A DNA stretch of 64,000 nt. It comes from Phycisphaerae bacterium. GTDB lineage: Bacteria; Planctomycetota; Phycisphaerae; UBA1845. Within the stretch, counting starts at the first letter, position 1; every line of letters begins with the position of its first letter. Below are positions 13,019 to 29,245 of the stretch, piece by piece. The notes under the pieces were generated by a model. The model had not been told where the DNA came from, did not search any database, and saw only the letters and a program-made list of their open reading frames with translations. The position numbers were made by a program, and so were the translations under genes. The stretch is taken from contig CAXXGO010000003.1 of the NCBI GenBank assembly GCA_963666835.2, forward strand, positions 448,001 to 512,000, given 5' to 3'.

Positions 13019-13289
13019 CCGAGTTGTTTGAGCAAGGAACGCGGGTTAGCTCTTATCGTGCAGCCCGCATTCCAGCAGATTGCCCGGCGGAGGAGCTGGT
13101 GCCGCGAGACGTAGATTCGCAAGGCAATAGCGCTTGGCCGGGCCCACATACTGAAGAAAACGCGAATGGCGAGTGAGCTGCCCAACAGGCCTCATTCGCC
13201 ATTCGCCTTTCTACGGTCCCGCCGCCGCGTCAGCCAACGCCTGCCGCAAAAGAAGCCGGCCGGGCAGTTCGTATGGTCGTACGGCACAC

Positions 13290-14417: not shown

Positions 14418-15208
14418 CCGTTCCCCGCCGCCTCCCCCGCCGGGACGATCCACCACCGTGGGGAATCCCCTGCCATCCTAATCGCCGAAAGGTCTACGCC
14501 GTATACCGGCTGGAGGATTTCCGGAGTCAGAACCTCGGCCGGCGGCCCGCTCGCTATCTGAACGCCATCGTTGAGCACCAGCACATCCGAGCAGAATTGT
14601 GCCGCCAGGTTGACATCGTGCGTCACGACCACCACCGCAAGCCCCTCCCGCACCGCACGATCCCGCAAGATACCAAAGATGTCCAATTGATGCCTAAGGT
14701 CCAGCGATGCGGTAGGCTCATCCAGCAGGAGAAGCTCAGGTTCCTGAGCCAGCGCCGCCGCCAGATGAACGCGCTGGGCCTCGCCGCCGGAAAGTGTCGC
14801 CATCCTTCGTTCCGCAAACGGCAGCGTGGCCGTCCGCTGCATAGCACCCTCCACAATCTCAAGGTCCTCGGCGTTCTCGAATAGGCCAAACGGCCGGTGC
14901 GGAAACCGCCCGAGCAGAACCACCTCTCGAACAGAGAGGTCGATATCGCCGGACACCTGCTGGGGCACGAGAGCGACCCTCCGAGCCCGTTCGCGCGCGG
15001 GGATATCCGCAACCGCAGCCCCGCCGAGGGTAATCACGCCTTGCGTCGGCTTAGTCAACCCGGCCATCAAGCGTAACAGAGTGCTCTTACCCGCGCCGTT
15101 AGGCCCGACGATGGCCCAGTGTTGACCGCCGCCGATCGACAGCGAGACCGGCCCCAGAAACTCCGGTCGGTTCGGAAAGCCGAATTGCACATCTTCGAGG
15201 ACGAGCAT
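14414..15208 (-). CDS. Iron-chelate/cobalamin ABC transporter ATP-binding protein
   Basis: GPNGAGKST, LSGGE, LLLDEPT, THD. Confidence 0.95.
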   Translation of the reverse strand: MLVLEDVQFGFPNRPEFLGPVSLSIGGGQHWAIVGPNGAGKSTLLRLMAGLTKPTQGVITLGGAAVADIPARERARRVALVPQQVSGDIDLSVREVVLLGRFPHRPFGLFENAEDLEIVEGAMQRTATLPFAERRMATLSGGEAQRVHLAAALAQEPELLLLDEPTASLDLRHQLDIFGILRDRAVREGLAVVVVTHDVNLAAQFCSDVLVLNDGVQIASGPPAEVLTPEILQPVYGVDLSAIRMAGDSPRWWIVPAGEAAGNG

Positions 15209-15218
15209 GGACTTGGCC

Positions 15219-16163
15219 TTAAGGCTCAATCTCGTCCTCCGAATGGAGCAGTCGGGAAAGTCTCTCGATGATCTCCACATAACGCGGAGAGGGGATCAGG
15301 CAATTGTCTTCCGTGAGGAAGTACACGCGGTCGTTGTCCAGGGCGGGCACCCCCTGGAGCTGCCTCCATTGCTCGAGCATCTCCTGACGAATTGCCGGAG
15401 TAAGCTCCACCTCGGGCATAAGCTCCACGATGACCTCCGGCCTGCGGGCCACGATCCCCTCCGCACTCACCTGGGGGTACGGCATGTCCACGTGGCCAAA
15501 GACGTTTCGCCCGCCCGCAATCTCCAACATCTCGTGCAGGAACGTCCCCTTGCCGGTGGTCAAGACGTTCGCCAGACGGCCCGGGCGCCGCGCCACGGTA
15601 AGAAGGACCCCCGGACGTTGCCGACCCGTGACCCGATCGCGAATGGCCTGCAGGCGGCGGCGCAGATCCATCCGCAGACTCCGAGCTTCGTCAGCGCAGC
15701 CGAGGTAGCGGCCTAATTCGGTTATTCCGGTCTCCACGTCAGCCAGGGTCTCCGTCCTATCGAAGTAGATCGGAATATCCAGCCTGTCACAGAGTGACTC
15801 CACTGAGTCACTCCGCCCGCGCAGCACCAGAAGATCAGGACGCAGGGCGACGATCCTCTCAAGATCAGGATCGAACAGCCCCCCCACGCGCGGCCGCTCG
15901 ATAAGCTCGGGCGGATACACGCAGAACTTGCTCACCCCCACTATCCGATCAGCAACCCCTAGCGCACAGAGAACCTCCGCCGAGTTCGGGGCAATTGTGA
16001 CAATCCGTTGCGGCCCGCGAGGTGCGGAAGTTGCCTCGACGGGTGCCTTGGAGGGATCCGGCGAATTCGCGCTTGCGGCAAGGCCCAACACCCCGGCCAG
16101 GCCGACCGCCAGCAACATCAGCCGGTAGAACCGCCGCCTTGTCAGATAGCTTTGCGCGAACAT
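15219..16163 (-). CDS. Periplasmic binding protein, BtuF/iron-chelate type (helical backbone)
   Basis: RIVTIAPNSAEVLCALG, VGVSKFCVYP, PDLERIVALRPDL; N-terminal export signal. Confidence 0.9.
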   Translation of the reverse strand: MFAQSYLTRRRFYRLMLLAVGLAGVLGLAASANSPDPSKAPVEATSAPRGPQRIVTIAPNSAEVLCALGVADRIVGVSKFCVYPPELIERPRVGGLFDPDLERIVALRPDLLVLRGRSDSVESLCDRLDIPIYFDRTETLADVETGITELGRYLGCADEARSLRMDLRRRLQAIRDRVTGRQRPGVLLTVARRPGRLANVLTTGKGTFLHEMLEIAGGRNVFGHVDMPYPQVSAEGIVARRPEVIVELMPEVELTPAIRQEMLEQWRQLQGVPALDNDRVYFLTEDNCLIPSPRYVEIIERLSRLLHSEDEIEP

Positions 16164-16248
16164 GCGACCATCGTAGGCCCGCAGCGCCGGCCTGCAAGAA
16201 AAATCCGCGCCCCGGATCGAACATCAGCCAAATCAAGCGAGAATCGAA

Positions 16249-18012
16249 TCAGACTTTGGGGACGAGACAGGCATCCTGCACACTGTGGCCACAGATGCTC
16301 GCTACGCTAACAGTGGCGCGAGGTCGCTCCGCCTTCCCGGGCGACCAACAGAACAACCGATCGCGAAGCTCATTCGTAGCGACGATCAGATCAGGGGCAA
16401 CCTCGACTCGACGCAAAGTCTGACCGCCCGCCTCATAACGACAGGCGAAGCTGTCGCCTATCACACAGGCATGGACGTGCAAAGACGTGTCCGTGAAGAC
16501 CAAACGCCGCACACCCTGCGTCGCCAGCAACCAAACCGACTCGGCCGCCCGTTGTGACCCGCGGTGCAAACGCTCCGGACTCGAGTCTTGCCCTGGTCTC
16601 CAGCGTAGGACATCCCCCGCGCTGTTGCCCGCAAACACGCCATCCGAAGTGGCACAGACCGCGGAAATCGCGCCCTCGCTGCCAGTGTAAACGCTCGCGG
16701 GACGATGCGACCGGTCGTCAGCCGGCCAGCGGATTACTCGATCGTCGATCGCACAATACAAATCGCCGGCTAGTAAGGTAATCCCCCGGACGGTCTGCGC
16801 ATCGCGGGTCATTGACTCAAAACACCGCCGGACGTTCTCTACGTCACCGATATCCCACTCACATATACCCAGCTCGGAGTGAGAGCCAAACACCCGCCCG
16901 CCAACTGCTACCACCGAGTTGAACCCGTATCGAACCACAGGGGCTTCCGCAACGGGCAGAACCAGGTCCGGTGCCGACGCTTCCAACGGCAGCCGGTAGA
17001 CGCCGGTGGCGGCGCCCAGCAACAACGCCTGTTCGCCGTTTTCCGCCTGCGCTAACTGCACCGACCGTACCGCCCCCACGGCCCCAGCAATCGGTATCGT
17101 CATTCGCGGAGCTTCCAAGCTATCCGCAGCGAAGAAGAGCAATTCGCCTCCTGCGCTCACGACGATCCACTGAGTGCGGTCCGTTGGCACGTCGGAGGCG
17201 AATAAAGCCTCATACAACTCGCCGCGCTGGTGTTCGGAGAACGTGCGGAGCAACTCCGGCATATCCGCATCCGGCGAGTCCGCGGACATTGCTTTTAGAC
17301 GCTCCAACATCGACGCCAGATGGTCGAGATGGTCGCCCTGAGCCCGTTCAAGGGCACGCTGGACCCCGCGGGCGGCCACGTGTTCGGCTTGGCTGCGCAC
17401 CGCCCGCTGCTGAGTATCACGAATCTGACGAAGCGTGTCCGACGAAACCAGCACGGTGGGCTTGCCCTGCAAAGTCAATCCGGCGGCGAAACACGCGCCA
17501 TCAAGAGCCGCAACGAGGGCATCGGCCACCCTCTCGCCGGCACTGCCCTCCACAAGTTCCGCGGCCTCGTGCTCGGCGGTTGACCGCAGTACGCTATCGC
17601 GAACTGCAGATGCGAGAGCCGTTAAAAGGGACTCGGTCCGCACAGTGCGTCTGCTGCCGAGGATCTTCTCGCTGAACGATCGCAATTCACCGACTTCCGG
17701 AACGGGCGCCACACTCAACCGAACATCCGCCCGACATCGATATCGATCACTCGTGAGGGCATCTTCCACCCTCAAGGCCACCTCGACCGGAGAGACCCGC
17801 ACAAAGAGCAGATCGTCCGCGTCACCCGCCTCGACCACCGCCCCGGGCGGGGCCACTACGTGGTCGCGAGTCGTTCGAGTTACAAGCGCCGCCCAACCGT
17901 GTGGCAGGTCCAATGACCGAGTCAGCAAGCCGAAAACATCCGCAGCCGGAGCAATAGCGGCGAGGTTGCCGTCGTCAGCAAAGAACTTTTTGAGATTGAA
18001 CTTCCCAGCCAT
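16249..18012 (-). CDS. Putative SPFH/band-7-like domain + coiled coil + beta-propeller protein
   Basis: N-half follows the SPFH pattern (LPHGWAALV..PPG..LLFV..LTSD..GLTL), then a helical segment; C-half has repeated 4-strand WD40-like units (AISAVCATSDGVFAGNSAGDVLRW); start ATG 18012. Confidence 0.65.
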   Translation of the reverse strand: MAGKFNLKKFFADDGNLAAIAPAADVFGLLTRSLDLPHGWAALVTRTTRDHVVAPPGAVVEAGDADDLLFVRVSPVEVALRVEDALTSDRYRCRADVRLSVAPVPEVGELRSFSEKILGSRRTVRTESLLTALASAVRDSVLRSTAEHEAAELVEGSAGERVADALVAALDGACFAAGLTLQGKPTVLVSSDTLRQIRDTQQRAVRSQAEHVAARGVQRALERAQGDHLDHLASMLERLKAMSADSPDADMPELLRTFSEHQRGELYEALFASDVPTDRTQWIVVSAGGELLFFAADSLEAPRMTIPIAGAVGAVRSVQLAQAENGEQALLLGAATGVYRLPLEASAPDLVLPVAEAPVVRYGFNSVVAVGGRVFGSHSELGICEWDIGDVENVRRCFESMTRDAQTVRGITLLAGDLYCAIDDRVIRWPADDRSHRPASVYTGSEGAISAVCATSDGVFAGNSAGDVLRWRPGQDSSPERLHRGSQRAAESVWLLATQGVRRLVFTDTSLHVHACVIGDSFACRYEAGGQTLRRVEVAPDLIVATNELRDRLFCWSPGKAERPRATVSVASICGHSVQDACLVPKV

Positions 18013-18070
18013 GATTCCGTCACTCAATGATCGCTTCGCAGTCTCAGCAAGCGCTGTAGCCGCCGCACCC

Positions 18071-19189
18071 TCATTTCTCCCCCTGCGCAAACTTCTCGTA
18101 GCGGACCAGATCTGAAGGATGCACCGAAGGGGGATTCTCCTCGATCGCCGTCAGAACGTCCGCCACCGAGATCGGCCGCGGCTCCTGCCCCGCAATCGCC
18201 TCCATAAACGGGCGCTGGGCAGCCCGCTGGGCAATACTCTTGATGTCGGCCCCGCTGTATCCGGCAAGCCGGTCGCATAGTGCGCCGAAATCCACATCGT
18301 CCGCCAGCGGCCGGTCTCCGAAGTGGATTTCCAGCAGTCTATACCGTGCCGGAGCGTCCGGCAGACCCACGTGGATCTTCGCATCGAGCCGACCGGGGCG
18401 GAGCATGGCCTCGTCCAACATCCAAGGCCGGTTTGTGGCTCCGACAAACAGCAGAGCTCGATCGCCTCTGCGGTCGAAACCCTCCAGCTCCTGCAGAATC
18501 TGCGGCACAACCCGTTGCATAACCGTCGAGCTGTCGCTCTTTCGCTTTGGTACCAGAGCCTCCGTCTCGTCGAGGAAGATCACCGACGTAGGTTCCGCCT
18601 TGGCTGCGTCAAAAAGCTTCTGAATGTTCTGCTCCGCCTCCCCGACCCACTTGCTGAGCATCTGCGCCGGGCTGACTACGAAGAACGTAGCGTCAATCTC
18701 GTGGGCAATGGCCTTGGCGATCATCGTTTTGCCCGTACCCGGCGGGCCGTACAGCAAGATACCCCCGCCGCGGCCAATCCCATACTTCTGAGCCAGCTCA
18801 GGATGCGCAAACGGGTAAATCATCTTTAGCCGGATCTCCTCCTTGACATCATCCAGCCCGGCAATGTCCTCGAAACCGATGGTCGGCTTGTCTTTAACGA
18901 TCCAGTCCGAGGCATCCGCCCCGGAGTCGCCCTCTTTCTCGCGTTGCCGCTGGCGGGCGGCTTTCGGTGACTTGTGCAAACGATCGCAGTCCTTGGCCAG
19001 GTCGATCAACTCCGCGGCCAGCTCCTCGTGCTGACGCTGGGCCTCGGGCGATTGGGTCGCCGCGGCCAGCTCGATCATGCACTCGGCCGCATCGACCAGA
19101 TACGCCTTGGCCGCCAAGTAGTCGCCCTTCTGATAAGCGGCCACCCCTTTGCTCTTGAGTCGATCAAATGTGGCAAACGAAACTGCCAT
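18071..19189 (-). CDS. Single-domain classic AAA+ ATPase with an N-terminal MIT-like domain (Vps4/CdvC-like)
   Basis: FEDIAGLDDVKEEI, GPPGTGKT, SKWVGE pore loop, VIFLDE, GATNRPWMLD, GYSGADI, C-terminal PSVHPSDLVRYEKF; about 70-aa three-helix N-terminus. The AAA call is secure; Vps4 affinity is inferred. Confidence 0.85.
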   Translation of the reverse strand: MAVSFATFDRLKSKGVAAYQKGDYLAAKAYLVDAAECMIELAAATQSPEAQRQHEELAAELIDLAKDCDRLHKSPKAARQRQREKEGDSGADASDWIVKDKPTIGFEDIAGLDDVKEEIRLKMIYPFAHPELAQKYGIGRGGGILLYGPPGTGKTMIAKAIAHEIDATFFVVSPAQMLSKWVGEAEQNIQKLFDAAKAEPTSVIFLDETEALVPKRKSDSSTVMQRVVPQILQELEGFDRRGDRALLFVGATNRPWMLDEAMLRPGRLDAKIHVGLPDAPARYRLLEIHFGDRPLADDVDFGALCDRLAGYSGADIKSIAQRAAQRPFMEAIAGQEPRPISVADVLTAIEENPPSVHPSDLVRYEKFAQGEK

Positions 19190-19210
19190 GCGGTCCCTTT
19201 GGGCTTGTTC

Positions 19211-19585
19211 CTATTCGCGCCTCGTCACCGGGAGCCGGCGAACACGAATCGCTGTATCTCCGATCACGACAATCGCCCCGCGGACGAGGTCATCGTCAAG
19301 CTCATCCAGATTCGCGAGCAAAGCAGATGTATGCTCCTCTGGTCGACCGTTGTGCATTCTGAGGATGATGACCGACGGTTGGGCGTCAAACGAGCCTGCT
19401 AGCAACGTGCCGAAGTCCGTGTCCTGCGTAATGATGACACGTTCTTCGTCTGCCGCACGCCGGAGAATAGTCGCATCGTCAGCGGCCGCCAGTCCCAGAT
19501 CGCGAACGTGTACCGCATCGTTCCCCTCGGCTGCCAGATCGCGTGCAACTCTCCACGAAACGGCTTGGTCAACCAAGAACCTCAT
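19211..19585 (-). CDS. DUF5615 family PIN-like toxin (VapC45-like)
   Basis: MRFLVDQAV, DAVHVRDLGL, DDATIL, IITQDTDFG; follows a DUF433 gene. Confidence 0.9.
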   Translation of the reverse strand: MRFLVDQAVSWRVARDLAAEGNDAVHVRDLGLAAADDATILRRAADEERVIITQDTDFGTLLAGSFDAQPSVIILRMHNGRPEEHTSALLANLDELDDDLVRGAIVVIGDTAIRVRRLPVTRRE

Positions 19586-19586
19586 C

Positions 19587-19829
19587 TCAGGATCCAGTCT
19601 CTTTCAGTGGGACAATCCGGTCTTCGGTCAGTGTTGCGGCATAGCGCAGCGCCTCGACAATATCTTCTTCCTCGAGATCGGGGTATGCCTCCAGGATCTC
19701 ACCGTGAAGCATACCACTGGCCAAGCAACGTACGACGGTGGCGACGGGGATCCGCAAACCGCGAATGCACGCCTGCCCACCCATCTGTTTGGGATCAAAA
19801 GTCAACCGTCCCCATTCCATTGTTCTCAT
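19587..19829 (-). CDS. DUF433 family antitoxin
   Basis: DPKQMGGQACIRGLRIPV...EILEAYPDLEEEDIVEALRYAA. Confidence 0.92.
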   Translation of the reverse strand: MRTMEWGRLTFDPKQMGGQACIRGLRIPVATVVRCLASGMLHGEILEAYPDLEEEDIVEALRYAATLTEDRIVPLKETGS

Positions 19830-20048
19830 CCTTCACGCAATCACCGTCTGTCACGCAGAAAGCCCCGGTTTCCGCGCCGTAGTGTCTACCCCAAGAACTC
19901 AAGCCCCATCGCAATTGGCAACTCGGCGGAAGCCCCCCCTTCTCAAAACGAAATTTCATTATCGTGCTCGTGCGGAACAAACACCAAACCCTATGATAAG
20001 AGCCCCCCTCATACCAGCAACGTATTCGTGCCACACGAATTCCCAGCA

Positions 20049-20774
20049 TCAAAGCTCCTCGAAGAAGCGATTCTGCCAGTCCGGAATGCCGTTCACTCCT
20101 GGGCACGCTCCGGTGTAAGGTTGTTCAAGAACTCGCGCCGGGATCCAAACATACTCGTGTTCTCTCAATGTCGCACGTACTGTTTGGCGGACTTCATCCT
20201 TGAGCCCGTCTTCATTGACAATCCCAGCCAGCCGACCGAAGTTGCTCGCACATATCCGTGCATAACCCCATTCCTCGTTATTGATAAGGCAAACAGCCGG
20301 CAACCGGACAGCGCCATGATAGCTCGCGTCCTGTATTTGCGGGCACATCTCCACCTTCGCTTGATCCGGAGAACAGTCAAAATCAGTAGTCAGGTTGAGA
20401 GAGAGCTTCGTGCAGAGATCATCCGCAAACCGCCTGAACTCATCGACCGCAACATCCCAGACAAAACCAAACGGGCATTCACTGCGCTTCGGGTCATCTG
20501 CCTCTGACAGAACCTCTAACCACACGACATCTGCCGGCCTCTTGAGACGCGGAGACTCCATTGAGTTCGGTGTCGTATCATTCCGCGCACTGTTGGCGTT
20601 CTCAATCCTATCCTGGCCGATAGCCAGCACCGCCTCGCTCAGCGACAAACCGAAAACACCGCGGATCACTCGGATGGAGGAAACCGCAGTAGCTCCATCT
20701 GACATCAGCGTATCGAACACATCCACCGGCGTTGCACCGCTTGTCTTTAACTCCACGTATTTCGTCGTGTCCAT
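20049..20774 (-). CDS. Hypothetical protein (N-terminal L7/L12-CTD-like helical motif)
   Basis: 241-aa ORF in a locally AT-richer segment; SIRVIRGVFGLSLSEA motif; C-terminal PYTG..DWQNRFF. Confidence 0.6.
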   Translation of the reverse strand: MDTTKYVELKTSGATPVDVFDTLMSDGATAVSSIRVIRGVFGLSLSEAVLAIGQDRIENANSARNDTTPNSMESPRLKRPADVVWLEVLSEADDPKRSECPFGFVWDVAVDEFRRFADDLCTKLSLNLTTDFDCSPDQAKVEMCPQIQDASYHGAVRLPAVCLINNEEWGYARICASNFGRLAGIVNEDGLKDEVRQTVRATLREHEYVWIPARVLEQPYTGACPGVNGIPDWQNRFFEEL

Positions 20775-20946
20775 TGTACGGCTCGCGACTCAGGCGGTAT
20801 TCCTTGGATCGGTGCGAACGCAAGTGACGAAGCTCTGCTCTTGCCACCCAGGCCACCTCGAACCACTTTGCCGCTCCTTGGCACAGGTAGAATAGGGGAA
20901 AGCACTCTCGACTGTCCCAATGCTCTTGCCCACGAGTGGATCCCCT

Positions 20947-21555
20947 CTACTTCTGCTTCTCCCCCTCGCCCTTGAGGGCGTTCAGTTCGGCACGCAGGCC
21001 GGCGAGTTTGTCTAGTTCCTTCTGATGCTCCGCTTCCGTCTCGGCGTCGATCAGGCGGTCGATCTCGTCGTCGGTGACGACCTCGCCCGCCTTGCTCATC
21101 TCAATGTCTTGGGCGGCGACGTCCTCCACCGTATCGAGGAACATATCCATCCGCTCTTCCATGGTCTGAGACTGCACCATGGCCTTCTCCCAATCGGCCT
21201 GGGTCTTGACCAGATCCGTCTCGCCGAAGAGCTTGCCGATCTCCCCGGCCATCATCCCCATCGCCTGGGCAAAATCGGCCGACGCCTCCGCCTGCCGCTT
21301 GACCAACAAAGCGTTCTTGACGGACAGAAGCTGTCTTTCGAGCATCCGGCGGATAGTGGCGGTCTTCTTGAGCGAGTTGCGAATGAAGACGTATTGCTGG
21401 GTGTCGCCGATCTTCTTGGCGTGCTGGGCGTTCTTGATGAACTCATCCTGGAACTTGCCCTGCTCGCGAATCGACTTCTCTATCCGGCGGATCCCCTGCC
21501 GGATCTTGATGTCTCGTTCGATCCGCCGCTCTTCCGGTGATTTGAAAAGTCCCAT
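20947..21555 (-). CDS. ESCRT-III/Snf7-PspA superfamily-like protein (Vps2/Vps24/CdvB-like)
   Basis: 202 aa, all-helical pattern; MGLFK amphipathic start; basic N-half, acidic C-half; DDEIDRLID helix; terminal LRAELNALK. Confidence 0.75.
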   Translation of the reverse strand: MGLFKSPEERRIERDIKIRQGIRRIEKSIREQGKFQDEFIKNAQHAKKIGDTQQYVFIRNSLKKTATIRRMLERQLLSVKNALLVKRQAEASADFAQAMGMMAGEIGKLFGETDLVKTQADWEKAMVQSQTMEERMDMFLDTVEDVAAQDIEMSKAGEVVTDDEIDRLIDAETEAEHQKELDKLAGLRAELNALKGEGEKQK

Positions 21556-21642
21556 GAGAATTAACTCTCAGATATCCAAACGCGTCCACCGGCCAACCGC
21601 CGCAACCGATTACAGCTTCCCCCGGCGCCCCTGAGCCCGCGG

Positions 21643-21858
21643 TCAATAATACTCGCGCTCCGGAATGATAAGCCAAAGCACGAGGTAGATGACGCACATA
21701 ATGAAACCGGGAAAACCAATTGGCAGTATCGATAACAGTGCATAAACCACCCGCACGGCAACCGGGTCAATACCCAGGTACTCGCCGAGTCCGCCGCACA
21801 CCCCGCCGACCCATCGGTTGGCCACGCTTCTTCGCAACTGCTTCGGATAACCATTCAC
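21643..21858 (-). CDS. pspC: PspC domain protein
   Basis: LRRSVANRWVGGVCGGLGEYLGID...RV...YLVLWLIIP, the PspC signature. Confidence 0.95.
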   Translation of the reverse strand: MNGYPKQLRRSVANRWVGGVCGGLGEYLGIDPVAVRVVYALLSILPIGFPGFIMCVIYLVLWLIIPEREYY

Positions 21859-21906
21859 CGTCTTAATCTCATTCCATCCGCCACCGCGGTCCGCCCGCCG
21901 ACCCGG

Positions 21907-22512
21907 CTACTGTTCGGGAGCCGCTTGTCTTTCCCGCACGCTCCGATCGGCTTCGTCGAAGCCCTCGGTTGTGTCGGTGATAGCCCCGGCGTCCATCTTC
22001 TCCCACACGTTCATTACGGTCTGCCCCGCTTCTGTCAGACCGGCGGCACCTTCGTCCACCGTAGCCCCCAACGCGAGAATCTCGTCCAGCCTCTCCTGGT
22101 AGACCTCGGCCCTGATCCCGTCCGACTCGATTAGCTTGCCGAGCCGCAGCATGTCCGCTTCACTGATCAACCCCAGCTTCGACGATTGCCCGGCTCGTTC
22201 GGTGTTCTCGCGCAACATACGCAGGCGGGATACGGTCATCATCTCTTTGCTGCGGACGTTGAGCTGCCGCGAGAGCATCAACTGCTCACTCGTGCGCAGT
22301 TCAAACTCCTGGGCGTAAGCCCGCCGAAGCTCCGGAGTCTTTTCCTGGGCTCCGCGCTCGAAGATCCCCTGCTTCTCCTTGGCAAGCTTCGCGATCTTGT
22401 TGAGCAGGCGCGTACGGTCCTTCTCGAGCAGCAGTTCCTGCCGCCGCAACTCCGTCCGCGTCATCCGCGAGAGCGGTCTCTTTCGCTTGGTGAGCCATTC
22501 GAGAAAGGCCAT
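21907..22512 (-). CDS. Helical coiled-coil protein, putative divergent ESCRT-III-like subunit
   Basis: 201 aa; MAFLEWL amphipathic start; long basic helical hairpin, acidic C-half; parallels the Snf7-like region of the neighbouring gene. Confidence 0.6.
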   Translation of the reverse strand: MAFLEWLTKRKRPLSRMTRTELRRQELLLEKDRTRLLNKIAKLAKEKQGIFERGAQEKTPELRRAYAQEFELRTSEQLMLSRQLNVRSKEMMTVSRLRMLRENTERAGQSSKLGLISEADMLRLGKLIESDGIRAEVYQERLDEILALGATVDEGAAGLTEAGQTVMNVWEKMDAGAITDTTEGFDEADRSVRERQAAPEQ

Positions 22513-22578
22513 AGTCAACACATCCCCCGCAAAGCGGAAAAACCCACTAGTGACATCGCATCGTCACAATACCGACTT

Positions 22579-24042
22579 TCAGATAGCCTCCGGATCGGCC
22601 GGTCGATCCTTCTGCTTCTCAGGCACGTCCGTAGTACCGGAGTCCGCCAGCGGCGGCATGGCCGAATCCGCCGCGGCGGTCGAAGCCGGCTCCTCCGCGG
22701 TCGGGGCTGCCTTGTCCGGCTCGACCGGGGCGGCGGCGGGCCCCTCGAACTCGCGCAGGATGGCCAGCTCATCTTCGCTCATTAGGGCTTGTTCCATGCC
22801 GGTTTCGAGCCCCCCGACCATCTCCGCGTCGGCCTGCAGCGTCTCGAGCATCTCCTCGGCCGCGACGGCGTGTTCGGTCAGCTCCGTTGTGTCGGGCAGC
22901 TTGGCCGCCTCGCCCTGCTGGATCAACGTCAAGTTGTGGATGTCCGTACTGATGATGTTGATCTGCTGATTCAGCATCGCCGCAGTCGTGTTCTGCCGAG
23001 AGATATCCTTGCGCATCTGGGCCAGTTGCGCCGCGATCCGCCGCCGCGGAACTTGCGACGTCGCAGCCTTGCCCTCTTCGAGGAGCGTAGCCTCCTTCTT
23101 CTCCAGCTTGCCGATGTCTTCGTAGATCCGATCGCGGCGTTGGGCCAGCGCCGCCCGCCGTTCCGCCAGCAAGTTGATCTTCTCCGCGTCGTCGCCTTCG
23201 CCGGAGAAGAGCTGTTTGATTCGATCGATGACGTTCATCGAGTGTCTCTCCTGACGGTGCACTGGTGCACCCCGGAACAACAGGAATTCGCCTTCCTTAC
23301 GGGTGAGGCGTAGCTCCGGCTCAGCGTCCGCCACTTGCTGGAATCCCGCGCGGACTACCTCCTCAGGAAGTCCCGTCTCTCTAGCTACCGACGATACCGA
23401 TAACCCGCCGGTGAGCAAGTCGGCGCTGCGGGCTTCGATCCCGTCACGAACCCGCTCCAGTTTCTGCTTCGCCCCTTCCGGATCGAATATTTTCAACAAC
23501 CGCGGATCCACATTTTCGCCGCCGCCGGTGGTCTTCCAGCCACCGCACCCGTCCGGCTCAATCAACACCACGGTTACATCCCCGGCAGAAAGTGAAGCCG
23601 CCCGAGCCTCTTGCGAAAAGCCCGTTGTGCTGCACACGCCGATGATGTGCGGCACCCGCTCGTCGGCTACCAACTTGCGAACGTGATCGCTCAGCTCCCC
23701 CAGACCGATCGGCGGCGGTTCGCTACTGCCCGGGTCGGCGAAGTGACTCAAGGGCGACAGAACCGAGGCAACCGCGACCCCTGTCCGTCGCTTCCAAAAT
23801 AGAAAACGACGTTCATAGCCATGTAGCGCGATCCGACGGTTGGCCGGAAGCGTTTTGAGCAGTTCACGGTCGTAATTGCGGTTCTTGGCCATCAAAGCCC
23901 GCAGCCGGTCACCCTCGTCATGCTGCGACCGCTGCCAGGATGATCCGCGTAAGTACTTTCGCTTCGCCGCTCCCAGATTCGCCTCGACCCCCGAGAGGAA
24001 CTCGGTCTCGTACTGAAGAGCTTTCGATGCGTCAATCGTCAT
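22579..24042 (-). CDS. Fusion protein: restriction-endonuclease-like fold + winged helix + Snf7/ESCRT-III-like C-terminal domain
   Basis: IIGVCSTTGFSQEARAA..VVLIE (Mrr-like C-terminal motif); LSVSSVARETGLPEEVV..LRLTRKEGEFLLF (wHTH); residues 269-487 begin MNVIDRIKQLFSG, form a helical hairpin, and end SEDELAILREFE + Pro/acidic tail. Confidence 0.7.
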   Translation of the reverse strand: MTIDASKALQYETEFLSGVEANLGAAKRKYLRGSSWQRSQHDEGDRLRALMAKNRNYDRELLKTLPANRRIALHGYERRFLFWKRRTGVAVASVLSPLSHFADPGSSEPPPIGLGELSDHVRKLVADERVPHIIGVCSTTGFSQEARAASLSAGDVTVVLIEPDGCGGWKTTGGGENVDPRLLKIFDPEGAKQKLERVRDGIEARSADLLTGGLSVSSVARETGLPEEVVRAGFQQVADAEPELRLTRKEGEFLLFRGAPVHRQERHSMNVIDRIKQLFSGEGDDAEKINLLAERRAALAQRRDRIYEDIGKLEKKEATLLEEGKAATSQVPRRRIAAQLAQMRKDISRQNTTAAMLNQQINIISTDIHNLTLIQQGEAAKLPDTTELTEHAVAAEEMLETLQADAEMVGGLETGMEQALMSEDELAILREFEGPAAAPVEPDKAAPTAEEPASTAAADSAMPPLADSGTTDVPEKQKDRPADPEAI

Positions 24043-24048
24043 CTCGAT

Positions 24049-24318
24049 CTACTTCCGATCAGGGGGGCCATCAATCAACGGTGCTCCGCACTGGCTGCAG
24101 TATCGCCCTTCACGAACTTCGGTCTTGCCACATTGCTCCCTCGAACAGACTCGCACTCGGGGTCTTTGTCCTCGACCACCCCGCGGACCGCGAAGGACGG
24201 CGAAGAACCCCTTGCCGACCTCCCCGAAAGCCCGCGCAATGACATACAACAAGCCAAACAACAGGGCCGCGATCCCCAGTACGAGAATGAGAATGATAAC
24301 CAGAGCATCACCGGTCAT
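24049..24318 (-). CDS. Small membrane protein with a C-terminal zinc ribbon
   Basis: One long N-terminal TM helix; CSREQC...YCSQCGAPL; 6-nt gap to the next gene. Confidence 0.8.
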   Translation of the reverse strand: MTGDALVIILILVLGIAALLFGLLYVIARAFGEVGKGFFAVLRGPRGGRGQRPRVRVCSREQCGKTEVREGRYCSQCGAPLIDGPPDRK

Positions 24319-24337
24319 CCCCGCCCCCCTAACGTAC

Positions 24338-25366
24338 TCACTTCAGAACACTCAGGTCGTTGCCGCAGAAGATGCAGAACCGATCACTCGCATGCACGAA
24401 GGCCTGGCAAGCGGCGCATCGCGGCACCGATGCCACCAGTTGCTGCCCGCATTGTATACAGAACTGATCGTCGCGGTGGACCGGGTTGTTGCACGCCGGG
24501 CAAACCGGATCCCCCCCCGGCGGCACCCAACACCGCGAGGCCGCCCGCTCCGTCTCCGCCGGCGCCCCCGCCACAGCGTCCAGCATCTGCCGCGCGGAGG
24601 AGAATCGTCTTTCGTATCCCGTGTACGACCGCTGGAATACCTGATCCAAATGGGCGGGAACCCCGGACCGCAACGAACTCGGCAAATCACCGCCCTGAGG
24701 CTTCTTGCCGGTCAGCATCTCGAACAGGACTACTCCGCATGAAAACAGGTCACTGCGTGCATCCAGCTCTGCACCTTCCCGTTGTTCCGGAGACATATAA
24801 GCCAGAGTACCCGCAATGCTCCGCCCCTCTTCGGTCTGCATGCTCCCGCTCTGCATTATCGATTGCGCGGTGACACCGCCCACGCGCCCGAGACCGAAAT
24901 CCGTAATCTTGACAGATTGCTCACTGATGGAGGCAAGCTCCTCGAGCGGATGACTCAACAGCACGTTCGCCGGCTTGATGTCTCGATGGACAAGATTGTT
25001 CTCATGCGCCGCCGCCAGCGCTTGAAGGATTCCCCGAAGGACCGCCACGGCCGCACCGACGGGAAACTCCCCCTGATACCGATCAACCGCCTCCCGCAGA
25101 GACGGGCCGTCCACGTACTCCATAACCAGATACGGCGGGTCGGCATAGGGATCGAGATCAATGGCCCGGACGATGTTGGGATGGCGTAACCCGTGCACCG
25201 CAGTACCCTCGCGCTGCAGGTTCCGAACAAACTGCGGGTCGGTCGGGATCTTGATGGCCACCGCCTCACCGAACACGTGATGGCGCGCCCGCCAGACCTC
25301 GCCGAAGCTGCCCGCCCCGACGCGCTGCTCAAGCAAATAGTTGCTTATCCGGTCTCCCTCTTTCAC
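24338..25366 (-). CDS. Hanks-type Ser/Thr protein kinase with a C-terminal double zinc ribbon, no TM segment
   Basis: GGAGG RBS before GTG 25366; GAGSFGEVW, VAIK, HRDIKPAN, DFG, GTLAYMSPEQ; CPAC/CIQC/CAAC/CIFC. Confidence 0.93.
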   Translation of the reverse strand: MKEGDRISNYLLEQRVGAGSFGEVWRARHHVFGEAVAIKIPTDPQFVRNLQREGTAVHGLRHPNIVRAIDLDPYADPPYLVMEYVDGPSLREAVDRYQGEFPVGAAVAVLRGILQALAAAHENNLVHRDIKPANVLLSHPLEELASISEQSVKITDFGLGRVGGVTAQSIMQSGSMQTEEGRSIAGTLAYMSPEQREGAELDARSDLFSCGVVLFEMLTGKKPQGGDLPSSLRSGVPAHLDQVFQRSYTGYERRFSSARQMLDAVAGAPAETERAASRCWVPPGGDPVCPACNNPVHRDDQFCIQCGQQLVASVPRCAACQAFVHASDRFCIFCGNDLSVLK

Positions 25367-25407
25367 AAAGACGATCCCTCCACCGCCATCCACAATCACA
25401 AGGCGAA

Positions 25408-25812
25408 TCAGACCTCCTCCAGCCGCTCGGCTTGGAATTCGCACACCTTGAAATTGTAGACTCCGGCCGCAAGAAAACCAAGTACCAGGACCACCCACGT
25501 CAGGGCGGCATGCCCAGTCACCCTCCCGATCATCCAGAAAGCCACCAGAACGTCGGCCAGCAGATACCCGATCAGCATGACTGCGGCGGCCACGTTGGAG
25601 TCCTTCGAGACCACCCATGACGTCACGAAAAACGTGGCCCACGGCAGAACCAGCACGAACCCCAGCCACGCAACAACATACTTGACCGTTGACCAGATCG
25701 TCTCCAACTGCTCGGGATGATTCCAGAACCAGATTACGGCTCCCGCCCCCGAGACGACCAGAACGGCGGTCACTACCTTGCTACCTACGTATTGTCCAAT
25801 GGCGGCCAGCAT
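25408..25812 (-). CDS. Hypothetical 4-TM membrane protein
   Basis: GAGGAG RBS before ATG 25812; four hydrophobic segments; first gene of the co-oriented cluster. Confidence 0.8.
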   Translation of the reverse strand: MLAAIGQYVGSKVVTAVLVVSGAGAVIWFWNHPEQLETIWSTVKYVVAWLGFVLVLPWATFFVTSWVVSKDSNVAAAVMLIGYLLADVLVAFWMIGRVTGHAALTWVVLVLGFLAAGVYNFKVCEFQAERLEEV

Positions 25813-25982
25813 CCGATTGGGCTCCTCATCTGGCAGCGTCCCCACCAAGCAGGGACCATCCCGGGCTCCCACGTATACTCTACCGCAGAATACCGGCGCC
25901 GGCGATTACAAAGTCCGCATCACTCTGTAGTGTTGATTCGAGGAAAAGCGATGATTATCCACAAAATCCGACATGGACGGGA

Positions 25983-27395
25983 TCAAACCAGTACGGAGCA
26001 CGCCTCAGACCGGGCAGCAACCATACAGTTCTTCCCCGCGGCCTTGGCTTCGTAGAGCGCGCGATCCACCGCCCGGATAAGTGACTCGGGGTCCGTCGCC
26101 TCCACTGAGTGCACGCTGGCAATACCTAAGCTCAGACCCGCGTCAACATGCGGCAGGCTCGCGCGGACAGCCTCCGCAAAGCTCTCGACGATCCGCCCGC
26201 CCAGCACTTCGGCCCTTTCCACGTCGGTTTGTGGAAGGAGTACGATGAACTCGTCTCCGCCGAACCGGGCGGGGATATCCGAAGCGCGCAACTGGCTCGT
26301 GATGGTCGCGGCCGTCATCACCAGAAGCTCGTCTCCGACATGGTGCCCGAAGGCGTCGTTTACCGCCTTGAAGTCATCCAGATCAATCATGATGCATGAC
26401 AGATCCACGTCGTAGCGGCGCACTTCGGAGAAACTCCGCGCAATCACTTCATTGAAGTGCCGGCGATTGTAGAGCCCGGTTAGAGGGTCCCTCGCGGCCA
26501 GCTCGCGGAGCTGCCTGGTCCGCCGTGCCACCCGATCTTCCAGGTCCGCGTTCAAACGCACGATTCGTTCGTGGGACTGCTGGTGTTGATCCGCCATTCG
26601 GTTGAACGCGTCTGCAAGCCGCCCGATCTCATCACGGCGGCCCACGGGATTGCGAACGTCCAGGCGTCCCTGGGAAAAACGCTGCATCGCCACCCCGAGA
26701 CCCTCCAACGGCGACACTATCCTGCGGATTAGCAGAAAGCCTAACGGAATCGCGACCGCAGCCGCAAGAATGCTCACCCCGACCAACAGATCCGTCCGGT
26801 TAGCCATCCACTGCCGCCACGCATCAGCGGCCATCCCAGCGCACAAGTAACCGACCAGAACAGTCTCGCCCGCTTCCTCGGCGTCCTTCTGATCGGTTCG
26901 CACATTGATAGGGTATTTGATATCCAGGAAGCCGGAGACCCCACCAATTGCGGCCCGATAGACGGGAGTTCCCGGCACCAGCCCGTCCTCGAGGTGCCGC
27001 AGCCCGGCACCGGCAAGAGCGTCACGGCCGTGGCTCTGCGCCCCGGCCAGACGGACTCCCTGATCATCGAAGAAGGCGATATACGCCAAGGCGTGGCCGT
27101 CGGCGACATCATCCGCCAGAGCTTGGAGTGCCTCGCTATCTCGCTGGGCTACCGAAGTCGCGGTGGTCCGAGAGAGCATCGACGCCAACTGCGTGAGAAC
27201 CTCGTTTTGCTGCGCCCGGGCCAGTTGAGCTGTGGATCGCAGGAAGTAACCCGACACAATTGCGGTGACCCCGAGAACCAGTGCCACGACCAGGACAGTA
27301 GCCTTGGACTGCAGACTCAGCGCAGTATCCAGCAGCCGGTTCCAATACCCGGCTAGCCCCGTTGTTCCCGCACTCTCCATCCGGACGTGGTCCAT
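25983..27395 (-). CDS. Membrane diguanylate cyclase (sensor-HAMP-GGDEF)
   Basis: Two TM helices, HAMP (RRDEIGRLADAFNRM), DPLTGLYNRR, RASD I-site, RFGGDEF. Confidence 0.95.
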   Translation of the reverse strand: MDHVRMESAGTTGLAGYWNRLLDTALSLQSKATVLVVALVLGVTAIVSGYFLRSTAQLARAQQNEVLTQLASMLSRTTATSVAQRDSEALQALADDVADGHALAYIAFFDDQGVRLAGAQSHGRDALAGAGLRHLEDGLVPGTPVYRAAIGGVSGFLDIKYPINVRTDQKDAEEAGETVLVGYLCAGMAADAWRQWMANRTDLLVGVSILAAAVAIPLGFLLIRRIVSPLEGLGVAMQRFSQGRLDVRNPVGRRDEIGRLADAFNRMADQHQQSHERIVRLNADLEDRVARRTRQLRELAARDPLTGLYNRRHFNEVIARSFSEVRRYDVDLSCIMIDLDDFKAVNDAFGHHVGDELLVMTAATITSQLRASDIPARFGGDEFIVLLPQTDVERAEVLGGRIVESFAEAVRASLPHVDAGLSLGIASVHSVEATDPESLIRAVDRALYEAKAAGKNCMVAARSEACSVLV

Positions 27396-27586
27396 AGCTC
27401 ACCAGCCCGCTCTCAGCCTGAGTTGAAGCGGTCGGCTAGCGCCCTACACACTACCCAGAGTCTTATCGGGGGGGGGCAAGCCGGACTGAAGGGGGAGATC
27501 CACCGACCGGGACGCCGGACGTATCAACGTACAAACATAAACCGACGGTGGACGAAACGATGCCGAACGGCGGACCGGGAGGCCGG

Positions 27587-28585
27587 CTACGCCTCCGCCA
27601 TCTCGCTGCGCTGGCGGGCTCGTTCTCGCAGCGTGTCGAGGGCCTCACGTACCTCATTAGCCATGCGGGCGTTGGGGAAATCCCGCACTAATTCTAGCCC
27701 CGTATTGATGGCATCGTTCCAACGCTTCTCGGTAACCGCAAAGCGAAACTGCACGCCAAGCTGCAACAGTTTCTCTTTGAAAACGTGCCGGGCGGAACTC
27801 TGCAAGGTATGTGCTTCAGCGGGTGAAAGATACTGATCCAACTCCCGGAGGATGTCTATAGCCAAGTCTGTATCGCTTCGACGAACTGCCTCCTGCCAGG
27901 CAGCCTTCATCTCCTCCTTGTGCTTCTCCTTGAGCATCTTCTCGCGATCAACCAATGCCGCCACCTTCGTATTGCCGGGCAGCGCCGCCGCCAGCCGGTC
28001 GATCTCCACGCGGGCGCGAGCCCAATCATGCGCCGCAAAGTGAACCTCGATCATCTTGATCGCCTCGGCGAGCCGAGCTTGGATAGCATCCCCGCGAGCG
28101 TTGTCCAACTCCTCGCGCAGCGCGTCCGCCTCTTCCTTCGCACCGAAGCGGTTTTCCATTGCCTCGATCAAACCAAACGCCGACTCCCATTTCTGGTTTT
28201 CGATGTCCGCGCGAATAGCCGCCCGCAAAGTCTCAAGCTCTTGGTCACGATGAGTTAGTGACTTGGCCGCATCGGAAAAACCGGTGTTCCGTGCAATAAC
28301 CTGCAGATCCGCAGATTGCCGCGCAATCTCGTTCTTTAGCTCACGGAATTCGCTGAGCTGGCGCGCCACGGTTGCCTCCATTTTGACCAACAGAGGCATG
28401 ATCGTCATGAAGACCGCGGCCAGGAGCAAACCGAAACCGCCGGCCACCATCAGCCAGCCGCTCGGCGAAGATTCCACCCCGACAAGCCCCAACGTCACCA
28501 GCGCGCAGCCGCCGACTATTCCAAGCACGCATGCCAGGTTATGAAGCCAGCGAAGTTGCGAAAACCGAATAGGTGGAGTAGCCAT
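27587..28585 (-). CDS. Hypothetical protein, 2 N-terminal TM + long helical/TPR-like cytoplasmic region
   Basis: GAGGA RBS before ATG 28585; two TM helices, then coiled coil and helical-pair repeats. Confidence 0.75.
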   Translation of the reverse strand: MATPPIRFSQLRWLHNLACVLGIVGGCALVTLGLVGVESSPSGWLMVAGGFGLLLAAVFMTIMPLLVKMEATVARQLSEFRELKNEIARQSADLQVIARNTGFSDAAKSLTHRDQELETLRAAIRADIENQKWESAFGLIEAMENRFGAKEEADALREELDNARGDAIQARLAEAIKMIEVHFAAHDWARARVEIDRLAAALPGNTKVAALVDREKMLKEKHKEEMKAAWQEAVRRSDTDLAIDILRELDQYLSPAEAHTLQSSARHVFKEKLLQLGVQFRFAVTEKRWNDAINTGLELVRDFPNARMANEVREALDTLRERARQRSEMAEA

Positions 28586-28817
28586 CTCAAGTTCCTCATC
28601 CTGAGAACAAGCGACCATTTCGAGCCGCCAAATGTTGCGTCGCCAATCGACATGCGGCCCTTCCGCAACCCTGAGCGACCGGCCCATCCTTGAGCCACCG
28701 GACCATCCTCTTTAATCCTAGTTCGCTTAGGTGGCCCGTCAACCGCCGACCGCCTCGACAAGAACGTGCGCTGCGAAATCCTCAAATACCAACCGGCCCT
28801 GCAACAGCCTCACGTCT

Positions 28818-29243: not shown

Positions 29244-29245
29244 CG

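Follow-up and report, generated by a model that had tools for sequence, protein, structure and literature searches.

Positions 16249–25812 on the minus strand of the window (the whole 64,000-nt stretch of DNA analysed) hold a candidate bacterial ESCRT-III/Vps4-like operon in the genome of an uncultured member of the Phycisphaerae (Planctomycetota). With moderate confidence, we read it as machinery for remodelling the cytoplasmic membrane, with stress-triggered repair or the scission of necks or invaginations as its likeliest roles. The claim of a sequence-only reading that a multi-paralogue ESCRT-III system with its own ATPase resides in a bacterial chromosome was supported by the nature of E3a, the ATPase N-domain, gene linkage and nativeness. 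Gene calls and Pfam likewise recovered the twelve co-oriented genes of that reading, nine of them core and three inserted. Neighbouring core genes were 6–87 nt apart, both gaps flanking the kinase being based on an approximate kinase start, later set at 25366. The features were as follows.

16249..18012, minus strand: SPFH/Band-7-like domain, coiled coil and WD40-like beta-propeller, 587 aa from the ATG, no TM segment (profiles)
18071..19189, minus strand: AAA1, single-AAA ATPase, 372 aa, with an MIT-like N-domain, an AAA core with RPGR and a Vps4_C-type tail (Pfam, profile, tree)
19211..20774, minus strand: inserted block outside the system, with an uncharacterised 241-aa gene, DUF433 and DUF5615/PIN (Pfam)
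20947..21555, minus strand: E3a, predicted Snf7/CHMP-type ESCRT-III of 202 aa, ending in an amphipathic helix (profile and model)
21643..21858, minus strand: PspC domain protein, 71 aa, one TM segment (Pfam PspC, E 5.5e-22, 77.8 bits, cut-off 25)
21907..22512, minus strand: E3b, ESCRT-III-like, 201 aa, of the archaeal Main-clade (arCOG09747/09749-like) type (profile links)
22579..23238, minus strand: E3c, C-terminal ESCRT-III-like domain of a 487-aa fusion (AF2 model, hhalign)
23257..24042, minus strand: N-terminal part of the fusion, alpha/beta domain (~1–186) and winged helix (~187–261) (AF2 model, profile)
24049..24318, minus strand: single-TM (6–24) protein with a C-terminal zinc ribbon, 89 aa (weak zinc-ribbon Pfam matches)
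24338..25366, minus strand: soluble Ser/Thr kinase with a C-terminal double zinc ribbon, ~342 aa (Pkinase 137 bits, DZR 36 bits)
25408..25812, minus strand: 4-TM membrane protein, 134 aa, four hydrophobic segments (no Pfam family)

The planctomycete host that had been thought probable was confirmed, because homologues of these genes carry Phycisphaerae or Planctomycetota names. The core had a GC content of 0.613 against 0.612 for the genome, and a tetranucleotide correlation of 0.95; among 300 7.8-kb pieces drawn at random from the genome, 30% scored lower. In a second sample and study, overlapping contigs with strain differences spanned positions 13000–30000, every junction being covered by one run or the other. 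On the strength of this composition and of the bridging contigs, an archaeal misassembly or other chimera was ruled out and the segment is native. The inserted block had a GC content of 0.56 and atypical tetranucleotides, and its DUF433 and DUF5615/PIN genes form a toxin–antitoxin-like pair.

Judged by sequence and predicted structure, E3a is an ESCRT-III protein of the Snf7/CHMP clade. Its profile matched CHMP3 (E 1.5e-5) and CHMP2A (E 2.1e-5) in the PDB, and hhalign gave 97% (E 6.6e-11) against Asgard ESCRT-III and only 17.5% against the cluster of Cdv-locus neighbours. Pfam Snf7 (PF03357) matched 10 of 59 family members, with no match for the protein of the window taken alone, and PspA_IM30 (PF04012) matched none of the 59. 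The model (mean pLDDT 74.5; helices 7–49, 52–109, 116–149 and 162–201) fits the ESCRT-III topology of a long alpha1–alpha2/3 hairpin followed by alpha4 and alpha5. Foldseek ranked CHMP2A/3 first (E 6.5e-4), and the first four rows of VIA were ESCRT-III, at Z 10.3–11.3, only about 1 above unrelated hairpins. The expectation that the helical proteins would model as ESCRT-III was thus borne out for E3a by model, fold searches and profile alignment. Identity was 86–94% across the best 120 homologues, which implies strong purifying selection. An assignment of E3a to PspA was also considered, and rejected on the matches to CHMP2A/3, Snf7 and Asgard ESCRT-III together with the PspA_IM30 count.

E3b may be assigned to ESCRT-III through profile links. 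hhalign gave 98% (E 1.6e-13) against Methanomicrobiales genes that adjoin Vps4 and occupy the Snf7-family position, and 96.9% against a cluster of planctomycete paralogues, which itself reached 94% against Asgard ESCRT-III; E3b compared directly with Asgard ESCRT-III gave only 1.7%. Its neighbour cluster in the Atlas was 16% Snf7. E3c aligned with E3b at 94% (E 1.3e-7), with the Main clade at 63% and with Asgard ESCRT-III at 38%, and appears linked to ESCRT-III through E3b. Its predicted topology fits, with a short N-helix, a long hairpin, two further helices (271–279, 285–326, 330–379, 385–410 and 421–432) and a disordered Pro/acidic tail ending in ...DPEA. Profile searches of the PDB gave no significant ESCRT-III match for E3b or E3c, fold searches with E3c placed ESCRT-III level with generic, unrelated hairpins, and neither aligned significantly with E3a (hhalign, 2% for E3b and 0.5% for E3c). 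The three units had a basic N-terminal and an acidic C-terminal half (net +11/−15, +12/−11 and +3/−21). Of the three helical ESCRT-III units originally proposed, E3a therefore stood, and E3b and, less surely, E3c may stand by profile links and overall topology but not by a decisive fold match. The third unit proved to be no stand-alone protein: it lies at the C-terminal end of a fusion, and the N-terminal part of that fusion ends in a winged helix.

This alpha/beta domain and winged helix of the 487-aa protein had been overlooked in the first reading. They were modelled at pLDDT 92–98; Foldseek rows were mainly wHTH proteins, and VIA gave Z 8–9 to Zalpha/SelB winged helices, the listed matches being generic winged-helix proteins. 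By analogy, this part may be ESCRT-II-like: ESCRT-II (Vps22/25/36) has tandem winged helices, and the fold search of the fusion showed one. The domain is encoded by a separate gene in distant relatives.

The Main-clade archaeal ESCRT comprises Vps4 (arCOG01307), Snf7-family proteins (arCOG09747/09749), a winged-helix protein (arCOG09748) and arCOG08177 (Makarova et al., 2024, PMC10936438), and SPFH and Ser/Thr kinase genes are frequent in its loci (PMC10936438). E3b homologues adjoin Vps4 in three Methanomicrobiales loci, one of which has the Methanocorpusculum parvum layout of PMC10936438 Table S2, and the alpha/beta–winged-helix and SPFH domains also recur in Methanomicrobiales loci of that layout. 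The profile of the fusion N-part matched a protein on the contig of one Methanomicrobiales Main-clade Vps4 (E 1.7e-17), with no homologue in two other Methanomicrobiales regions scanned; arCOG09748 is itself defined as a globular domain with a C-terminal winged helix. The SPFH N-part matched the SPFH proteins encoded at two Main-clade loci of archaea (E 4e-11 and 2e-13). The planctomycete operon differs in its bacterial host, its additional E3a and AAA1 module, its three ESCRT-III types, its PspC, and the fusions of SPFH to a propeller and of the winged helix to ESCRT-III. No arCOG08177 homologue was found in 40 planctomycete loci with a two-sequence profile. Many other planctomycete operons contain, besides AAA1, a second ATPase that is sister to Methanomicrobiales Main-clade Vps4 (100/99); this Main-clade Vps4 is absent from the present order of Phycisphaerae, in which one ATPase is left. 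The operon looks like a mosaic of a module shared with the Main clade (winged-helix protein, E3b/E3c, SPFH, kinase and, elsewhere, Main-clade Vps4) and an E3a/AAA1 module.

By its sequence, AAA1 is Vps4-related rather than a canonical Vps4. Pfam detected one AAA domain and Vps4_C (PF09336) at 28 bits over a cut-off of 21.3, and an ESCRT-III gene lies in the neighbourhood, the criterion used in PMC10936438. The N-domain profile matched 17 of 20 Asgard Vps4 sequences (12 at E<0.001, best E 2e-8), bearing out the suspected MIT domain, and matched none of 22 CdvC and none of three Main-clade Vps4. Among the 28 family members, Pfam reported MIT in one and TPR_2 in six, and the full-length profile matched PDB 2mpk, which we take to be an MIT domain (E 6e-5 over positions 10–68). 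A Cdc48-type RPGR arginine-finger motif was present in all 29 homologues listed, where the references have RRF/SRF, the form without PGR that characterises the second region of homology in the meiotic clade. Model scores were 227 bits for CdvC (cut-off 650), 227 for PAN and 220 for CDC48. In a tree built without eukaryotic, Halo_FHA, adaptin-clade and Thermoplasmata Vps4, AAA1 and two TPR-AAA rows were sister to the sampled archaeal Vps4 clades, not nested inside them (98/81), and apart from Cdc48 D1/D2, PAN and FtsH (98/81; SH 0.91). The nearest branch was this long-branched archaeal TPR-AAA pair, and the one member checked had no recognisable ESCRT neighbour. The Vps4-type ATPase originally proposed thus keeps its MIT-like N-domain (by profile) and its single AAA domain with a Vps4_C-type tail, but has RPGR and falls outside the sampled Vps4/CdvC clades. 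A Cdc48/p97 identity, which would call for two AAA domains in tandem and a double-psi barrel N-domain, was rejected on the single AAA domain, the helical N-domain and the separation from the D1 and D2 clades.

Compared with Asgard and eukaryotic systems, the operon is alike in the CHMP2A/CHMP3/Snf7 and Asgard matches of E3a, and in the Asgard-like N-domain, the Vps4_C-type tail and an SKWxGE pore loop of AAA1. It differs in an AAA1 core outside the Asgard/CdvC clade, with RPGR for RRF, and in having no ESCRT-I or ubiquitin genes. It is unlikely that the helical proteins form a PspA-like passive scaffold while AAA1 acts as a Cdc48-like unfoldase on another client, such as the SPFH-propeller protein, with no Vps4-type cycle. 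The RPGR motif, the PAN and CDC48 scores equalling that of CdvC, the TPR-like aspect of the N-domain and, in this genome, a tighter spacing of AAA1 with the SPFH-propeller gene than with E3a are consistent with such an unfoldase. The Asgard Vps4 matches, the tail, the Snf7-type rather than PspA-type helical proteins and the placement of AAA1 right after E3a (<200 nt apart) in 11 of 16 same-order relatives argue instead for a Vps4-like partner.

A literature search found no description of such a bacterial ESCRT-III/Vps4-like operon. Recent reviews confine the pairing of ESCRT-III with Vps4 to archaea and eukaryotes, and two papers of 2024–25 describe systems of this kind as missing from bacteria. 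PMC7619361 states that bacteria seem to lack a Vps4-like ATPase and that other ESCRT parts may still be found in them. In substance, the planctomycete operon contradicts the first of these two statements. Bacterial Vps4-like ATPases are described from operons in which a TPR-6TM gene displaces snf7, and the ATPase linked to PspA/divergent Snf7 has two AAA domains (Ravi et al., 2024, PMC11237479). With its MIT-like domain on a Cdc48-like core, AAA1 is directly relevant to the hypothesis that Vps4 arose from Cdc48.

The partner genes named beforehand (PspC, SPFH-propeller, two zinc-ribbon proteins, one of them a Ser/Thr kinase, and the 4-TM protein) were all recovered by Pfam, profiles and TM segments. 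Band_7 (PF01145) matched 7 of 27 SPFH-propeller family members (best E 1.1e-5), with no match for the protein of the window alone, and the family profile matched WD40 structures. The kinase had no TM segment, and its GTG start was inferred from an upstream GGAGG; in several operons of distant planctomycetes, a C-terminal homologue of the 4-TM protein stands ahead of the kinase. A search of the 92%-complete genome for PspA gave no match (9 of 14 controls gave one), so PspC is here without its classical partner. Bacterial Psp systems belong to the same superfamily and share PspC, SPFH, zinc-ribbon and TM partners; they differ from this operon, for which PspA_IM30 matched neither the E3a homologues nor the genome.

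In the preferred reading of membrane repair or scission, gene content suggests that PspC, the TM-zinc-ribbon and the 4-TM proteins would sense or mark damaged membrane, with the kinase toggling the system by phosphorylation. The SPFH-propeller protein may then oligomerise at the membrane, where it would serve as a scaffold or as an adaptor for cargo. ESCRT-II winged helices nucleate the filament for Vps20, and the alpha/beta–winged-helix domain fused to E3c could nucleate here. E3c, E3b and E3a, as predicted from homology, would co-polymerise through their basic hairpins and N-terminal helices. A hexameric MIT-ATPase would hold the C-terminal tails, most plausibly the terminal amphipathic helix of E3a, and by extracting subunits constrict and recycle the filament. 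Small, soluble and expressible, the protein set suits testing of ATP-driven ESCRT-III turnover and scission on bacterial membranes, and the operon is a candidate explanation for still puzzling membrane biology in planctomycetes without FtsZ.

The linkage anticipated in other genomes was found in 20 same-order loci, out of 25 relatives matched, and since the genes recur together there the operon is not a chance assembly. The fusion, E3b and E3a occurred in 20/20, as did the kinase (one fragmentary), followed by the 4-TM and TM-zinc-ribbon genes (18/20 each), the ATPase (16/20; three misses at contig ends, one truly separated), SPFH-propeller (15/20) and PspC (11/20). Distant planctomycete E3a loci contained the winged-helix-domain gene (19/20), an operon ATPase (17/20) and SPFH-propeller (12/20), with PspC in none of 20; E3a without an ATPase close by was seen in three of these and in one same-order locus. 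Within the class, 40 of 151 genomes encoded E3a, with large families at 0/21, 0/21, 0/16 and 0/12; in the phylum, 57 of 301 genomes did so, about a fifth of the sampled Planctomycetota, with E3a mostly adjoining such an ATPase in the loci read. Sporadic copies occurred in 1 of 221 Chloroflexota and, in the phylum that includes the Methanomicrobiales, in 3 of 121 genomes.

This patchy distribution makes a phylum-wide division role less likely, so that among the roles first proposed repair and scission are preferred over division. It is improbable that the same machine performs cytokinesis or bud-neck scission in FtsZ-less lineages, like Cdv in Sulfolobales, whose division set is CdvB/B1/B2/C, three paralogues and one ATPase. 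That parallel, the finding of the highly conserved E3a as a single copy in 21 of the 22 other genomes of the order and the failure to find ftsZ in this genome favour it. Against it, E3a is patchy by family although planctomycetes generally lack FtsZ. As in crenarchaeal Cdv, several ESCRT-III paralogues accompany a single MIT-type ATPase in a cell without FtsZ, and one ESCRT-III is joined to a winged helix, but that helix is N-terminal here and C-terminal in CdvB, no CdvA-like gene was recognised, and AAA1 lies far under the CdvC cut-off. Insertions are also tolerated within the operon, and the homologous archaeal loci belong to methanogens that use FtsZ. Possible, if doubtful, is a near-complete ESCRT pathway in these FtsZ-less planctomycete lineages, in which the winged helix joined to ESCRT-III is the nucleator, three filament subunits act one after another and a deep-branching MIT-ATPase retains the Cdc48-like state that gave rise to Vps4. 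Such a pathway would cut membrane necks during cell division or the formation of internal vesicles. If true, it would be the first ESCRT machine for scission known from bacteria and would preserve a living intermediate step in how Vps4 evolved.

The patchiness and sporadic copies in Chloroflexota and the Methanomicrobiales' phylum, the kinase and zinc ribbons, and the gathering of toxin–antitoxin-like and other inserts at the E3a–ATPase junction (unrelated inserts in 5 of 16 relatives) could instead point to a conflict or anti-phage system, in which the kinase would set off ESCRT-III polymerisation so as to shed or seal off infected membrane, or to kill the cell. We consider this quite improbable: the operon is near-fixed, single-copy and syntenic across the order, with conserved flanks, native composition and very slow evolution, unlike fast-turnover defence islands. 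A GGDEF gene lay upstream of the operon in 11 of the 20 same-order loci.

The operon at 16249-25812 contained twelve genes, all on the minus strand, with a separable block of three inserted genes, as the sequence-only reading had described. Pfam matches were obtained for kinase, AAA, Vps4_C, DUF433, DUF5615 and PspC domains; the helical proteins received no Pfam name in this search of the operon proteins.

Genes of the operon, 16249-25812 (-), in order of transcription
1, 4-TM protein
2, soluble Ser/Thr kinase with a double zinc ribbon
3, TM-zinc-ribbon protein
4, 487-aa protein, a fusion ending in an ESCRT-III-like domain (E3c)
5, E3b, 201 aa, helical
6, PspC
7, E3a, 202 aa, helical
8 to 10, three inserted genes, 19211-20774 (241-aa orphan, DUF433, DUF5615/PIN)
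11, AAA1, 372-aa ATPase
12, 587-aa protein

The operon is a real, conserved bacterial variant of the archaeal/eukaryotic ESCRT-III/Vps4 system, with a winged-helix (wH) component that is putatively ESCRT-II-like. The segment is native to the host genome (6.0 Mb, 92% complete), and the host was rightly taken for a planctomycete, with homologues carrying the names Phycisphaerae or Planctomycetota. The GC content of the operon core was 0.613, compared to 0.612 for the genome, and core tetranucleotide usage was ordinary. A single contig, possibly from the source sample itself, covered 13000-30000, and overlapping contigs with strain differences from a second sample and study covered all of this interval. 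The proposed checks of composition and coverage thus found a core matching its genome and a segment spanned by second-sample contigs; together with the synteny of relatives, this ruled out an archaeal misassembly.

Twenty loci were read out of the 25 same-order relatives matched. The fusion, E3b and E3a were each present in 20/20, as was the kinase (one copy fragmentary), followed by the 4-TM and TM-zinc-ribbon proteins (18/20 each), AAA1 (16/20, the misses being three at contig ends and one real separation), the SPFH-propeller protein (15/20) and PspC (11/20). A single open frame in all 20 loci ruled out a frameshift or read-through artefact for the fusion. The expected neighbourhood conservation was found, with core genes linked in both same-order and distant planctomycete loci. 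The insert was atypical (GC 0.56, with 5% of random genome pieces scoring lower on tetranucleotides). E3a and the ATPase were ≤200 nt apart in 11 of 16 relatives, the other five holding differing inserts, so that their junction is a spot prone to insertion; this proximity and the atypical composition ruled out the insert as a system component. Those junction inserts (L066:7024-9086, L071:8259-11195, L073:8172-9296, L076:8386-9135 and L083:8197-11067) were unrelated, and included HEPN/nucleotidyltransferase-like genes (by eye), membrane proteins and a 907-aa secreted-looking ORF.

Directly upstream and co-oriented lay a HAMP-GGDEF diguanylate cyclase (25983-27395, minus strand), retained in 11/20 same-order loci, which makes a c-di-GMP link to the operon possible. 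Starting 85 nt downstream, the same strand encodes the binding protein, ATPase and permease of an ABC transporter of the FecCD family (13290-16163, minus strand), an arrangement seen in only 1/20 same-order loci.

E3a was detected in 57/301 genomes of the phylum and 40/151 of the class, where its distribution was largely all-or-none by family: 21/22 other genomes of this order and 17/21 of one other family carried it, and within the 151 class genomes it was found in none of twelve families outside this order. Profile searches elsewhere gave 1/221 in Chloroflexota, where the genes surrounding E3a were the same set, one weak partial match among 91 genomes from the phylum of Methanobrevibacter, 0/251 from the phylum of a Moorellaceae genome and 0/5 among single genomes outside the phylum. 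A search of viral contigs with a Vps4-motif DNA pattern returned nothing.

E3a is an ESCRT-III protein. Its profile, built from 59 sequences, gave 13 PDB matches, led by CHMP3 (E 1.5e-5) and CHMP2A (E 2.1e-5), with weaker matches to Snf7, CdvB and CHMP1B, and PspA/Vipp1 absent from the 13. For the AF2 model (pLDDT 74.5), Foldseek ranked CHMP2A/3 first (E 6.5e-4), and VIA placed ESCRT-III chains in its top four rows, albeit a mere 1 Z or so above unrelated hairpins. A comparison by hhalign with 17 Asgard ESCRT-III proteins encoded next to Vps4 gave 97%. Pfam Snf7 was found in 10/59 members and PspA_IM30 in 0/59; the latter count, and a genome in which no PspA was found, ruled out a PspA identity. 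A loosened MIM1-like pattern, based on what we take to be the MIM1 consensus, matched 27/52 E3a tails compared to 1.9 in shuffles, and none of the E3b (0/31) or E3c (0/26) tails. These matches show no more than a terminal amphipathic helix; by eye, the tail of E3a in the window kept the three leucines and lacked the acidic and Arg positions. A complex predicted between the N-domain of the ATPase and the tail of E3a scored 0.24 against a mark of 0.32 and weighs neither way.

E3b and E3c diverge further. The two were homologous to each other (hhalign, 94%), profile comparison detected no homology of either to E3a, and their PDB profile searches gave no significant ESCRT-III match. In three Methanomicrobiales-related loci, genes adjoining a Vps4-like ATPase matched E3b (E to 6e-15; hhalign 98%); one of these loci contained SPFH and two 200-aa genes, with a 192-aa gene and the ATPase arranged divergently. 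The same layout is given for Methanocorpusculum parvum in PMC10936438 (Table S2), which lists the two genes under the Snf7-family arCOG09747/09749; the correspondence is based here on layout and a matching alignment passage. An independent tie of E3b to ESCRT-III came from a cluster of 12 genes of distant planctomycete operons (96.9% to E3b, 94% to Asgard ESCRT-III). In the E3c model a short N-helix led into a long hairpin, followed by two helices and then a disordered tail, and fold searches left it unseparated from generic hairpins. Of the three ESCRT-III proteins or domains originally proposed, E3a was supported by PDB, Foldseek and Asgard comparisons and E3b by profile links; E3c is tied in through E3b, with an indecisive fold match. 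After a disordered linker, E3c ended in a conserved acidic motif (DPEA/EPEA-like; 22579-22620, minus strand) found order-wide, a candidate docking tag. In two families, a coiled-coil gene with a signal peptide or TM lay between ESCRT-III-like genes (L031:10242-10880, L033:10315-10902, L039:10299-10886); no ATPase lay within the fetched regions of L033, L039 and L041.

In the 487-aa protein, an N-terminal alpha/beta domain and winged helix, modelled with high confidence, had been overlooked by the sequence-only reading. This alpha/beta-wH domain was a separate gene in distant relatives, in 19/20 of the distant loci read (20 of 56 phylum-scan hits, picked for long contigs and different families). 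One Methanomicrobiales Vps4 shared its contig with a homologue of this domain (E 1.7e-17), and none was found in two other archaeal regions scanned; wH proteins of this sort (arCOG09748) are regarded as ESCRT-II-like in PMC10936438. Fold searches of the larger model gave no named fold for the alpha/beta domain (1-186), because the lists were filled by other domains. The 587-aa protein consisted of SPFH, coiled coil and propeller, and its SPFH part matched SPFH proteins of archaeal loci. In an archaeal locus of the Main ESCRT clade (L299:1571-10969), Vps4 and two ESCRT-III-like genes were accompanied by genes for a zinc-ribbon SPFH protein, a propeller/PEGA-like membrane kinase and a PP2C-like phosphatase; there the propeller is attached to the kinase, whereas in planctomycetes it is attached to the SPFH protein.

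The AAA1 N-domain profile matched Asgard Vps4 (17/20), but not CdvC (0/22) or Main-clade Vps4 (0/3). In the PDB it matched 2mpk, presumably an MIT domain, calpain-7 weakly, and also TPR proteins. AAA1 had a Vps4_C-type tail, an SKWVGE pore loop and an RPGR motif as in Cdc48/PAN, and scored equally on CdvC, PAN and CDC48 models. A passive scaffold accompanied by an unrelated unfoldase is unlikely. In an IQ-TREE analysis of 71 AAA domains picked from about 279 extracted, with eukaryotic and several archaeal Vps4 clades outside the sample, AAA1 and two long-branched archaeal TPR-AAA proteins were sister (98/81) to a Vps4-type clade (99/93) of Asgard Vps4, CdvC, Main-clade Vps4 and AAA2, the second ATPase of other planctomycete operons. 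Both groups stood apart from Cdc48 D1/D2, PAN and FtsH, and a FastTree of 143 rows likewise set this grouping away from Cdc48, PAN and FtsH. The nearest branch to AAA1 consisted of archaeal single-AAA proteins (L298:6229-7737 and L203); the one read carried TPRs at its N-terminus, with no ESCRT gene recognised beside it, and the pairing is possibly long-branch attraction. The claim of a Vps4-type ATPase stands for the MIT-like N-domain and Vps4_C tail; canonical Vps4 was not accepted, given the RPGR motif and branching outside the sampled Vps4 clades, and AAA1 is Vps4-like and deep-branching. AAA2 was sister to Main-clade Vps4 (100/99). Among the distant loci, AAA2 and AAA1 each occurred in 13/20, and both in 9/20. 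In 61 genomes of this order, none of the AAA2 matches listed exceeded 38% identity, and with matches this low AAA2 is read as probably lost there. At a locus with two AAA2-type cores, one ATPase (L046:10294-11535) combined an AAA1-like N-domain (by eye) with an AAA2-type core, a possible domain swap between two motors.

The data show the homologies, folds and gene linkage, and we infer a Vps4/ESCRT-III-like working. The genes very probably form an ESCRT-III operon that includes an MIT-type ATPase of its own. PspC, TM and SPFH proteins would mark the membrane, the kinase may control the system, the wH domain could assist filament nucleation, and the ESCRT-III-type subunits would co-polymerise and undergo MIT-dependent, ATP-driven turnover. 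Stress-linked membrane repair or neck scission is the role we slightly favor. Roles in cell division or in defence appear unlikely. Searches of the host genome (92% complete) found no ftsZ and no PspA.

In the sections available, vps4 plus ESCRT-III systems are described as confined to archaea and eukaryotes (PMC10936438), and a Vps4-like ATPase as apparently absent in bacteria (PMC7619361). The accessible text of PMC11237479 reports transfer of Vps4-like ATPases to Planctomycetes and others, but at loci where a TPR-6TM gene has displaced snf7; it also describes an ATPase with two AAA domains next to PspA or membrane-anchored Snf7. The parts seen of PMC8281802, PMC13051332, PMC8382908, PMC13312728 and PMC7203096 held nothing on this operon. 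No description of this operon type was found in the literature searched (subscription journals lay outside its coverage), and this bacterial ESCRT-III/Vps4 variant is apparently unpublished.

Elsewhere in the window, two secreted-looking proteins (11372-13018, plus strand, and 47912-49459, minus strand) carried Cys/Asp-rich thrombospondin type 3-like repeats. The former ended in an IPTVSTWG-type sorting tail, which we take to be IPTL-CTERM.
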